DNA from: Paraspadella gotoi
Lineage: Eukaryota > Animalia > Chaetognatha
Direction of reading: 5' to 3'
Assembly (NCBI GenBank): GCA_051294375.1
Contig: CM119266.1
Coordinates: forward strand, 5,255,210-5,319,209
Length of the DNA stretch: 64,000 nucleotides
Below are positions 21,655 through 31,407 of this stretch, piece after piece. The position numbers and the translations under genes were made by a program. Every line of letters starts with the position of its first letter. The first letter of the stretch is position 1. The notes under the pieces are model-generated. The model was not told the origin of the DNA. It did no database searches and saw only the letters and a list, made by a program, of their open reading frames with translations.

Positions 21655-24600
21655 ATGTCCCCGCCAAAACCCAAACGCGTCTGCATAATCGGGTCGGGTC
21701 CCTCAGGCTGCTCGACCATGTTCCACTTTTGCGAACTTGAAAAGAGCGGAGAGGAAATTCCCGAAATCGTCTGCTACGAAAAACAAGATGATTGGGGCGG
21801 ATTGTGGAACTACTCTTGGAGAACGGGTGAAGGATTTAGATTTATCAGGGATGGATTTATGTAGCGAGAAAATATGGCGAGGATGGGTTTATATTTAGTT
21901 TTTATTTTCGGAGAGCGGATTTACTAGCAGGGATGGATTTATGCAGCGAGAAAATATAGCATGGGTGGATTCATATAGTTTTTTTTAGAAAGATAAGATT
22001 TACTATCCGGGATGGATTTATGTAGCAAGAAAATATAGCATGCGTGGATTTATATACGCAGCAGGAGAATTGATTTATCAGATTGGATTTATAGTATTAT
22101 AATTAACAAGGATAGATTTATAGCGAAATATTTAACAATAAATAATTTAGCGAATGAACTAAATATATTTATATAATTAGTCTTCCTTTAAGTGGCCCCC
22201 TTTTTTTATTTTTCAATTATCCCCCTTTATTCCAACCAGGACTCGACCAGTACGGAGAGCCAGTCCACGGCAGCATGTACCGCTACTTGTGGTCCAACGG
22301 ACCCAAGGAATGTCTCGAGTTCCCCGACTACACCTTCGAGGATCACTTCGGAAAACCCATCCCAAGTTTCCCGCCGAGGGAAGTTCTCTTCGATTATCTG
22401 AAGGGTGAGTGAGAGTTGAGACTTGGAATCCAGGTTTATAATTAAGATTAGGCTCTCTTTTTATATTATTATATTTATATTTCTTTATTTTTATTATGTT
22501 TATATTGAAGATGAGGCTCTCTTTTACAAATAAATAACTTGATATTGATTTTGAATGTTGATATTACTCGCATAATACATAGTTTTCTCCGATCTAATCC
22601 TCATGGGACTTATCCTTATACAATTAAATGTTCTTCAAACATTATACCTCTTTATTGAAGGAAATCCAGATTCTCTGGGATTGAATAAACTAGACTGTGA
22701 GAGAGTCCTGCTATGGGATCCTGATATGTTAGTATGTTGTAATAGGGATGGAGGCGTGAAGGCTTAACTTACCTTTGCCTGTTCTAAAGTCAGGTAGCGT
22801 GATGGTTCTTTTATCTCATAAACCACCAAGCACCAACCCCCTCATCTCACAATCCACCAACTCCTTCTTAAAATAGGCCGGTGGCGCCGCCACGACATCA
22901 AACGCTTCGTCAAGTTCGCCCATTGCGTCAAATCCGTCGTCTACAACGACTCGACTGACGACTTCACCGTCGTCGTCAAAGATTTGGTGAAGGATCACGT
23001 TCTTCCGGCGGAGACTTTCACTCACGTCGTCGTCGCCTCGGGTCACTACTCTGTTCCTCACGTCCCTTCCTTTCCTGGGATTGAAAAGGTTTTTTTTTGT
23101 TTTCTTGGTTTTGCTTTTGTTTTGTTTTTTTATTGTTTTATATTGTTGATAATGTGTTGTTGTTTTGTTTTGTTTGTTTTCTTACTTAAAGTTAATAAAG
23201 TTAAAGTTAATAAAGTTTAATAACTCCTCGTTTACATTTTCGTTCTAAAGCTCAGTTCATAAAATTTTCGTTCTTGTGTCTCGGATTTCTTTCTACTCTC
23301 CTGAGTTTTAAATCGTTTTTAACTTTTTTACCCTTTTTTTGTTTTGTTTTGTTTGTTTGTTTTTTTTAGTTTCTTATTCTCTCTATGTTCGCTGATTCCT
23401 GATTTTTTCCATCCCGAAATCTTTCAGGATTTTTTCCTTTTTATATAGTTGTTTTTCACTTCATCCTATTAGCCATAGCCGATGAAATTTAAATGCTAAT
23501 GTATACAGCGTTAAAATAATCTCTCCTGAGCATAGATTATAGTATTAAAATATTTTTTGTCAAAAATTATTTTTTCTAAGAGTACTAGCCTAATTGAAAT
23601 TGAAAACAATTTTTTTTTGAAAGCTTAAAATTTTTTGATAAACTCTGATAGAGCATAAAAAGTTAAACAAAAAATATAATTACAGCTTTTAAAAATCTTA
23701 CGTTTTCTCAGTAAAAATCTTAAAAAACTGATAAAATCATCCAAAGATGATGATGATTTTTTAAGGTTTTTCTTATTTTTGACCTACTTATCATAAAAAT
23801 ATTTCAAAAGGAATTATACTTTGTGTGGAAAACTTGTTATGAGCTATCTGAATCTGGTCTTAAAATTTAAAATTTCTTTAAAAAAATTTTGGCCTTTTCT
23901 ATTTATAAATAAATATGAAAAAAATAATTACTAAAGTATAAAGCCATATAAAAATTTTTGTGTCCATTGGAGGTATACTTAAAAATGTATAAATTTTCGT
24001 TTGAGCTTGTACTCGCTCTAAATTTTTGATTCACCCCATTGAGTGCGGCTACCCTTACTTTAATCTTTATCTTATTAATTCTCTATAAATTTTTATCTTT
24101 TATCATTTGTTATTTTTCATTCCCTCAAATTTTCCCCGCTACCCACTTGGACGTCACCCACCCTCCCACGAATGACCCCTATTCCTTCCCAACCAATTTA
24201 TCCACAAATCTCTACCCACATATCCCCACCACACTCTTCACACTTCCCCCCCGACTCACAGTTCCCCGGTCGCGTGATGCACGCTCACGATTTCCGCGAC
24301 GCCAACGAATTCGAAGGTCGACGCCTCCTTCTCGTCGGCGCTTCCTACTCAGCCGAGGACATCGCCCTGCAGTGCCTCAAGTACGGCGCCAAGAGCATCA
24401 TCTGCACTTGGAGGACCAAGCCGATGGGATACAAGTGGCCCGACGAGGTGCGCCGCGGGGGGGGGNNNNNNNNNNNNNNNNNNNNNNNNNNNNNNNNNNN
24501 NNNNNNNNNNNNNNNNNNNNNNNNNNNNNNNNNNNNNNNNNNNNNNNNNNNNNNNNNNNNNNNNNNNNNNNNNNNNNNNAATCTTAACTTTTTAGATATT

Positions 24601-30600: not shown

Positions 30601-31407
30601 ATTCTAGACGAAATACATGTTGGATCTTTGCGCCGAAAACAATTATCCTTACAATTTGGATGTGACTGAGCTTTTCAACACGTGGGAAGATCACAAGCAT
30701 CAAGACATCATGACTTACAGGTCAGTGACATAGTGTCTTAAATGTTTGTGACATCCTGACGAAGTGATCGCGTGGTTTGAGTGTCAGCGATTTCAAAAAT
30801 TAACTCATTGGAATTCCGAGCGTGTGAACTGAAGTAGGCCCGCAGTCCGACGAAGCATACATGGAATATCTAACATATTAATATTCGAAAATATTAAAGT
30901 TCGTTTTGAAAAAAACAAAAAAACAAAAGGCTTATTCTGGAGGAAAACAATTTTTTCTAGGATTCTCATTGACTTTCTAACGGAAATATTTTAACCTATT
31001 TAGATGCTCACTTGACTTACTAAATATTTTTTGGGATTTATTCGTTGTCTTTTAATTCTTTTCATCCAAGAAGAAGTCAGTCTTTTAAGCGCGCAACTCA
31101 TAAAATGATAAAAATAAAAATAATAAAACCTTTGAAACTCCGGTGTTAAAAACCGAATAAAATTATTAATAGAATTTTGAAAAAATTAATAAATGAAATA
31201 ATTTCCACCATGCACCCTTCCCGACCCCACCTACGTTGCCCCCCTTCCAGAGACCAATCTTTCGCCTCGGTCTTCACGGGCACCCAGTCTCCTGTCCATC
31301 ATTCCAACTTCATGCTCGCTCTCGACGACTCGTTGGAGACCTTCATGAATCAAACTCCCAACAAGTCGGTCGCCGAAGGAGAAGAAGAGAACGAAGTCGA
31401 TCACTGA
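21655..31407 (+). CDS. Flavin-containing monooxygenase, bacterial trimethylamine monooxygenase (Tmm/mFMO) type, 468 aa, 8 coding exons
   Basis: Exons 21655-21826, 22240-22404, 22877-23088, 24262-24447, 29869-30023, 30190-30436, 30608-30720 and 31251-31407. All introns are GT-AG and phase-consistent; total 1407 nt. Motifs: IIGSGPSG (FAD), [50 protein letters not shown] (FMO fingerprint), [10 protein letters not shown] (NADPH), [16 protein letters not shown]. Confidence 0.96.
21847..22060 (+). repeat. Degenerate ~78-bp tandem repeat in FMO intron 1
   Basis: gggatggatttatg(t/c)agc(g/a)agaaaatat(g/a)gc recurs at ~21849, ~21929 and ~22009. Confidence 0.75.
26494..29221 (+). CDS. C22orf15/CXorf65-family small protein nested in FMO intron 4 (3' end uncertain)
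   Basis: Exons 26494-26542, 27120-27290, 28080-28294 and 28796-? are GT-AG and phase-consistent. They give [87 protein letters not shown], matching the family pattern FIxV...LFNxNC...LLxxIxxxC...VDLxDxxGxVKxL...YA as I recall it. The last exon runs into a GA tract and may contain indel errors. Confidence 0.75.
27700..28075 (+). repeat. Pyrimidine-rich minisatellite (cccttccaattc every ~55-65 bp)
   Basis: Six recurrences of ccttccaatt embedded in CT tracts. It lies in an intron. Confidence 0.8.

Follow-up and report, generated by a model that had tools for sequence, protein, structure and literature searches.

The spliced gene described here probably encodes a membrane-anchor-free flavin monooxygenase (FMO) of the Tmm/mFMO type. 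It would belong to an old clade represented in cnidarians, copepods, molluscs and nemerteans, and likely oxidizes trimethylamine (TMA) to TMAO along with small amines and sulfides, e.g., DMS. The gene lies on the forward strand of the window, i.e., the whole stretch of 64,000 nucleotides that was analysed. Its structure, the splicing of introns 4 to 7, its residues and its clade are directly supported.

Gene structure and splicing

The open reading frame (468 aa, 1407 nt) is assembled from eight exons between positions 21655 and 31407 (+). GT/AG sites were tried within about 4 nt of the estimated exon borders, and a single combination keeps the frame open. Thus, the complete spliced frame without a C-terminal membrane anchor that the sequence-only reading had described is borne out. 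All seven introns are of the GT..AG type, with phases 1, 1, 0, 0, 2, 0 and 2, and intron 2 interrupts the codon of Gly113. The GC content is 0.53 in the exons (0.70 at third codon positions) and 0.25-0.38 in the introns. The features of the locus are as follows:

21655..21826, + strand: FMO exon 1, codons 1-57, with the start codon and the FAD-binding GxGxxG at 13-18; Pfam FMO-like, E 6e-6
22240..22404, + strand: FMO exon 2, with Asn77 and Cys82 (mFMO N73 and C78); NCBIfam trimeth_mono, E 2e-32
22877..23088, + strand: FMO exon 3, with Tyr170, a Phe in the 79 bacteria
24262..24447, + strand: FMO exon 4, with FxGxxxHxxxF at 184-194, GxSYSA at 209-214 including the lid Tyr212, and Arg234
24448..29868, + strand: FMO intron 4, 5421 nt, with three N gaps and a nested gene; removed by splicing in contigs from three runs
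26494..28303, + strand (the same as the FMO gene): nested gene in FMO intron 4, predicted 147 aa; Pfam Il2rg (PF15874), E 4e-12, above the cut-off
26494-26542, 27120-27290 and 28080-28303, + strand: coding exons of the nested Il2rg-domain gene, predicted from sequence
29869..30023, + strand: FMO exon 5, with Asn296
30190..30436, + strand: FMO exon 6, with the 2-residue insertion of the animal clade near residue 313, the gate Asp324 (RnTmm D317), and Tyr326 at the position of mFMO W319
30608..30720, + strand: FMO exon 7, bounded by GT/AG and supported by contigs
31251..31407, + strand: FMO exon 8, with Arg417 (codon split by intron 7), an acidic C-terminal tail lacking a hydrophobic helix, and the stop codon

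Splicing was assessed in read contigs from four runs (X1, X5, X9 and X10, whose status as RNA or DNA is a guess) over positions 29800-31450. Intron 5 is joined in contigs of X9, X10 and X5, which come from three studies; introns 6 and 7 are joined in contigs of X9 and X5, and intron 7 is retained unspliced in X1. In the contigs of X9, X10 and X5, the loose end ahead of exon 5 is the end of exon 4 (24416-24445), which demonstrates that splicing removes the 5.4-kb intron 4. The FMO gene is therefore spliced across its gap-bearing intron. Contigs support the splicing of introns 4 to 7; introns 1 to 3 are predicted from the sequence.

The gene nested in intron 4 and the three N gaps there had been overlooked in the sequence-only reading. 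For the nested gene, an alternative first junction at 26546/27124 fits equally well.

The neighbours of the FMO gene are zinc-finger, F-box and UNC-93-like genes. Both these neighbours and the tree mark the host as an animal. A bacterial tmm gene is intronless and lies among methylamine genes; the window gene differs in having seven spliceosomal introns, animal-type neighbours and no operon. That the locus reflects contamination, or an assembly chimera joining the halves of two paralogues, is extremely improbable. The three N gaps and the second gene within intron 4 would be compatible with a chimera, and paralogues do exist, at least two further copies being present in the same organism. However, contigs from three runs, each of a different study, contain the junction of exons 4 and 5, and the seven canonical introns and the animal-type neighbours speak against contamination, which had already been discounted from the introns and neighbours. 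For introns 4 to 7, contamination and chimerism are refuted by the spliced contigs.

A Tmm-type protein and its predicted chemistry

All three motifs by which the Tmm cluster (C4) is defined in the available text of Goris 2020 (PMC7688232) are present in the window protein, namely GxGxxG at 13-18, [FY]xGxxxHxxxF at 184-194 and GxSYS[AGS] at 209-214. The last of these, the NADPH motif with the lid Tyr, is found in 24 of 31 eukaryote-type rows. N77, C82, S211, Y212, R234, N296, D324 and R417 are the counterparts of residues that have been examined in mFMO, RnTmm and Pelagibacter Tmm (Tmm7211) (PMC11313838, PMC8498191, both as far as available), where mFMO numbers were mapped by motif and Tmm7211 numbers by offset rather than by direct alignment; applied straight to locus L076, the Tmm7211 numbers gave no correspondence. 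Of these, S211, R234, N296 and R417 correspond to the residues that bind NADP. Both the active-site Asn and the active-site Tyr expected from the sequence alone are thus in place, as Asn77 and Tyr212. Two pocket positions are unlike mFMO, with Y170 for F165 and Y326 for W319, the latter Tyr also occurring in 13 of the 79 bacteria. The bacterial set comprises 79 of 80 loci, L011 (724 aa) having been dropped as its start was not found; because the frames were chosen by motifs that include the catalytic Asn, this residue is present in 79/79 by construction. P0157 and P0277 are not part of the alignment used for residues and the insertion.

Profile and structure matches point the same way. Three FMO exons each match the NCBIfam Tmm model (NF058570), whose cut-off is 675 bits; scores of 678 and 686 bits were obtained for P0063 and P0001, respectively, and these are the scores of relatives, whose clusters are about 80% and 77% identical to the window protein. 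Exon 2 matches mFMO/Tmm structures with E values of 1e-24 to 1e-29, versus 3e-6 for insect PNO, and 44 of 54 residues (81%) are identical to mFMO 2xve. The impression that the protein follows mFMO nearly residue for residue therefore holds for exon 2 but not for the protein as a whole, whose identity to bacterial proteins is 52-58%. P0063, a full-length relative whose cluster representative is 80% identical to the window protein, reaches 515-576 bits against bacterial Tmm structures, compared with 175 bits against insect PNO and 84-109 bits against ancestral mammalian FMOs, in agreement with the proposed distinction from vertebrate FMO1-5. Hydropathy, calculated in 19-residue windows, peaks at 0.94 overall and at 0.32 in C-terminal windows, and hence there is no membrane anchor. 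Judged by its sequence, the window protein is a Tmm/mFMO-type flavin monooxygenase, unlike vertebrate FMO1-5.

With the bacterial enzymes (mFMO 2xve/2vq7, NiFMO 6hns, RnTmm 5gsn, Pelagibacter Tmm 7d4k; NF058570), the window protein shares the three motifs, the catalytic Asn, the lid Tyr, the gate Asp, the NADP-binding Arg and Asn, a core of about 450 aa and the lack of a membrane helix; it differs from them in its 2-residue insertion, in the Tyr residues at the F165 and W319 positions and in its acidic C-terminal tail. FMO clade II (mFMO, insect PNO/SNO, plant GS-OX, yeast FMO) is characterized by a short NADPH-domain insertion, a Tyr back door, solubility, a length of about 450 aa and no C-terminal membrane helix, and the window protein conforms, with 468 aa and Y212 as the back door. 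Within this clade, bacterial members are far closer to it than insect PNO (576 versus 175 bits for the relative P0063). It has none of the attributes of clade I, i.e., 500 or more residues, a hydrophobic C-terminal helix and an Asn back door. Vertebrate FMO3, a clade I enzyme of about 530 aa that is membrane-anchored, is of the same fold class and likely also converts TMA to TMAO.

By homology, and following the mechanism described for Tmm in the available text of PMC8498191, FAD would be reduced by NADPH, and O2 would then form a C4a-hydroperoxyflavin that is stabilized by Asn77 and bound NADP+ and shielded by the lid Tyr212. Entry of the substrate would move NADP+ onto the gate Asp324 and close the entrance, and a single oxygen would be transferred to the N or S of the substrate. 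Such a cytosolic enzyme would keep the hydroperoxyflavin poised for small soft nucleophiles; its likely role is the cytosolic removal of TMA derived from the diet or from microbes, with TMAO as the product. Of the purified bacterial candidates, 20/23 were active on TMA (Goris 2020, PMC7688232), and bacterial Tmm oxidizes DMS as well (PMC8498191), according to the parts of these papers at hand. By analogy with these enzymes, the window enzyme likely oxidizes TMA in vitro.

A different function is possible, although we consider it rather unlikely: a general soluble N/S-oxygenase, similar to PNO/SNO, that detoxifies dietary alkaloids, indoles and sulfides, with TMA as a side substrate. The paralogues in the same organism, the expansions in Tubulanus, Rhopilema and scallops, and the altered active site of some animal paralogues would fit this function, as would the acceptance of indoles and aryl sulfides by mFMO (PMC11313838, available part). 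Against it, the window copy retains the full set of Tmm residues, and TMA monooxygenase activity has been reported in calanoid copepods, in which the clade is well represented. Among 25 animal proteins, Y212 is found in 20/25 and D324 in 21/25, and hence the clade may not be isofunctional; this variation in some paralogues, together with the gene expansions, favours mixed roles, among which TMAO supply, clearance of TMA or DMS and general detoxification may each figure. For the window copy, we continue to prefer TMA oxidation.

An animal family and its possible origins

The closest relatives, 75-82% identical, come from short environmental contigs, which we take from the tree and from the shortness of the contigs to be eukaryotic transcripts. 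Intronless frames are among the best 80 matches in the metagenome scan, and none of ten environmental contigs checked has a poly(A) tail. Among the matches listed are copepods (Calanus, Neocalanus, Acartia, Eurytemora, Tigriopus), jellyfish (Rhopilema, Sanderia), corals plus an anemone (Desmophyllum, Oculina, Montipora, Acropora, Stylophora, Exaiptasia), scallops (Pecten, Mizuhopecten, Ylistrum, Argopecten) and the nemertean Tubulanus. Since each search gave the best 120 of several thousand matches, the absence of a phylum from these lists is uninformative. The copepod entries from EukProt are transcriptomes. Ten divergent representatives were looked up, and the four with a name or source are a dinoflagellate, a diatom, Tubulanus and one unlabelled EukProt entry; the protist Tmm-like proteins are those of the diatom Epithemia and the dinoflagellate Apocalathium. 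The patchily retained lineage that had been offered as one of two explanations is thus seen in the distribution of the relatives. Many of these proteins carry the RefSeq name 'trimethylamine monooxygenase-like' (Rhopilema XP_065051237, Tigriopus XP_059078431, Argopecten XP_069131059, Tubulanus XP_074660925), as had been anticipated for other marine invertebrates.

Identity to the window protein is 52-67% (median 60) for 25 animal-labelled proteins and 52-58% (median 55) for 79 bacterial ones, the best bacterial match among 185,579 species genomes being 58%. The animal label of P0267 was assigned via its cluster, and P0022 is presumably animal, as we read its identifier. A 2-residue insertion near residue 313 is present in 25/25 of the animal-labelled proteins and in 0/79 bacteria, and is absent from the dinoflagellate P0300 and EukProt P0319. 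Moreover, in several protein fragments that look unspliced, agreement with the full-length partner ends exactly at Gly113, where intron 2 lies; these are one fragment in the Tigriopus cluster, 5/5 compared in a second cluster and one in a third. Other fragments break at sites not common to the window gene; the comparison was made on proteins, not DNA, and P0049, P0052 and P0053 did not align. On this indirect evidence, the position of intron 2 is probably common to the window gene and its animal relatives.

Trees of 280, 65 and 38 rows were built out of 434 proteins plus loci. In the 38-row tree, 14 animal-type rows group with the window protein in one clade with support 100/99, a clade that also appears in the other two trees with lower support. 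The RefSeq invertebrate proteins placed in the tree or alignment share this clade and the insertion; the window protein sits in a separate subgroup with environmental sequences, weakly sister to calanoid copepods (83/79). Branching within the clade departs from animal phylogeny, with scallops first and Tigriopus with Tubulanus, which implies either paralogy or weak signal. As rooted by one very long outgroup branch (P0404, insect-PNO-like), the best tree has animals beside bacteria, not inside them, with weak support (66/86), and protist rows near the root on long branches; the test also allows a root within the animal clade (p-AU 0.059). The bacterial groups for the topology tests were picked after the trees were seen. 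In view of these comparisons, the window gene is best read as belonging to an old animal gene family and not as a recent bacterial loan; its inheritance would go back at least to the common ancestor of cnidarians and bilaterians, followed by duplications and losses.

The boldest explanation in the sequence-only reading was a domesticated bacterial transfer, to be supported by nesting within Proteobacteria. A transfer into the window animal's own lineage, with introns gained later, is very improbable. The 81% identity of exon 2 to mFMO might suggest it, but exon 2 is equally close or closer to other animals (46-49/55 residues, versus 43-45/55 for bacteria). The exons are richer in GC than the introns; exon GC is known for the FMO gene alone, and hence GC is no evidence of foreign origin. 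The insertion and the likely common intron 2 also argue against such a transfer, as does the animal clade itself, and it is set aside because forcing the window group among bacteria, away from other animals, gave a p-AU of 1e-5 (one bacterial group tested). A tree in which the animals as a whole join the main SAR11/Rhodobacter/Rhizobiales Tmm clade was likewise rejected (p-AU 0.006).

Two older origins stand about equally. It is quite conceivable, if somewhat short of probable, that the animal stem received bacterial tmm in a single ancient transfer, diatoms and dinoflagellates having acquired theirs independently. Animal and bacterial proteins are still about 55% identical, and the insect clade II FMO reaches merely 175 bits; placing the animals beside one smaller bacterial group is allowed (p-AU 0.25), a single eukaryotic clade is only marginally so (p-AU 0.066), and P0300 and P0319 lack the animal insertion. 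However, animals stand beside bacteria in the best tree, where the protist rows branch near the root; the tests allow bacterial monophyly (p-AU 0.23) and reject a position of the animals within the main proteobacterial clade. Similar weight, at slightly less than an even chance, is due to vertical inheritance since early eukaryotes, accompanied by many losses, in which case bacterial tmm would be a sister group or a recipient. This view draws on the Tmm-like proteins of Epithemia and Apocalathium, on the fact that neither eukaryote nor bacterial monophyly is rejected, and on the explanation of FMO patchiness by duplication and loss in Nicoll and Mascotti (PMC10682829, available part); it is weakened by the marginal p-AU for a single eukaryotic clade, by the long branches of the protist sequences and their lack of the insertion, and by the single outgroup branch on which the root depends. 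The broad eukaryotic clade that had been named as grounds against a transfer is found at the level of animals, and is marginal for eukaryotes as a whole.

Implications for TMA and DMS oxidation in marine invertebrates

In Nicoll and Mascotti 2023 (PMC10682829), FMOs from brachiopods, tardigrades, nematodes and Nematostella are assigned to clade II together with mFMO; the available main text does not name an animal Tmm-like subclade, and the clade II taxa of the supplement may already include these animal proteins. In the literature searched, which covered few subscription journals, we found no description of the animal Tmm clade, no paper using the phrase 'trimethylamine monooxygenase-like', and none tying a gene to the TMA monooxygenase activity of calanoid copepods (Strom 1979, as cited in the available part of PMC12324868). 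The accessible part of PMC13557801 holds nothing on the subject of animal Tmm. The window gene thus adds a member to a family that is widespread, named by automatic annotation and apparently unstudied.

This family offers a cloneable and likely soluble candidate for the copepod activity of 1979, and it is a likely one. In two marine papers, as far as available, Tmm is handled as a microbial marker, and tmm is counted per prokaryote in PMC13310141 (available part). Because two members of the animal clade, P0063 and P0001, score above the cut-off curated for bacterial Tmm, animal transcripts could enter tmm counts that are made by profile. If the animal enzymes also oxidize DMS, animals would be a direct DMS sink.

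A bolder reading, which we hold only tentatively, is that this is an undescribed Tmm subfamily, taken once from bacteria near the base of the animals, kept in corals, jellyfish, copepods, molluscs and nemerteans, and responsible for TMAO synthesis in invertebrates. If so, zooplankton and corals would oxidize DMS to DMSO directly, and unfiltered ocean transcript data would contain animal sequences among the 'tmm' scored as bacterial. The main interest of the gene lies in this testable tie to invertebrate TMAO synthesis and DMS oxidation.

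A gene nested in intron 4 of the monooxygenase gene

Intron 4 of the Tmm/mFMO-type flavin monooxygenase gene (FMO gene) contains a second gene, on the same strand as its host.

26494-28303, + strand: nested gene with an Il2rg domain (PF15874; Pfam match), predicted protein of 147 aa

The encoded protein is presumably similar to C22orf15/CXorf65-type proteins. Because the final two coding exons of the nested gene lie on one gap-free piece together with FMO exon 5, a scaffolding error is an unlikely source of the nesting.

Among the contigs aligned to this region, a single one from sequencing run X5 (29800-29867, + strand) carries a tail of 21 A, and its endpoint coincides exactly with the intron-4 acceptor. 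No canonical poly(A) signal was found shortly upstream of this tail. The tail of this one contig may mark the nested gene's 3′ end, or it may belong to an excised intron that was tailed.

Neighboring genes and repeats

31956-33610, - strand: C2H2 zinc fingers and a nuclear-receptor-type C4 DNA-binding domain, in two reading frames
38265-38612, - strand: exon with an F-box domain
41274-62010, both strands: several pieces of UNC-93-like genes

In the first of these genes, which is split across the two frames, the C4 domain lies directly in-frame with the C2H2 zinc fingers, and this pairing within one gene is unusual. The second frame continues until a stop, with no match to a ligand-binding domain. 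At 45733-48500, an N gap is flanked by near-identical UNC-93-like pieces on opposite strands, which may reflect a duplication in the assembly. Reading by eye also revealed two similar, GC-richer tandem copies of about 200 bases each at 17100-17720, probably a repeat element.

Paralogues and tandem homologues

Loose contig ends at 30252-30301 and 31261-31305 (runs X1, X5 and X9) reveal that this organism has at least two further Tmm-like paralogues, all of them outside the 64-kb window. Among the Tmm-like homologues, the protist-type domains of P0300 (from the dinoflagellate Apocalathium) and P0319 (a EukProt entry) are extended at the N-terminus by about 225 and 350 residues, respectively. P0021, P0161, P0437 and P0157 each comprise a tandem pair of Tmm-like units. 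For the two-unit proteins of the nemertean Tubulanus and the copepod Tigriopus, the pairing may stem from a fusion of gene models. P0021, 898 aa long and encoded on a 3.0-kb contig, may be a genuine tandem enzyme.
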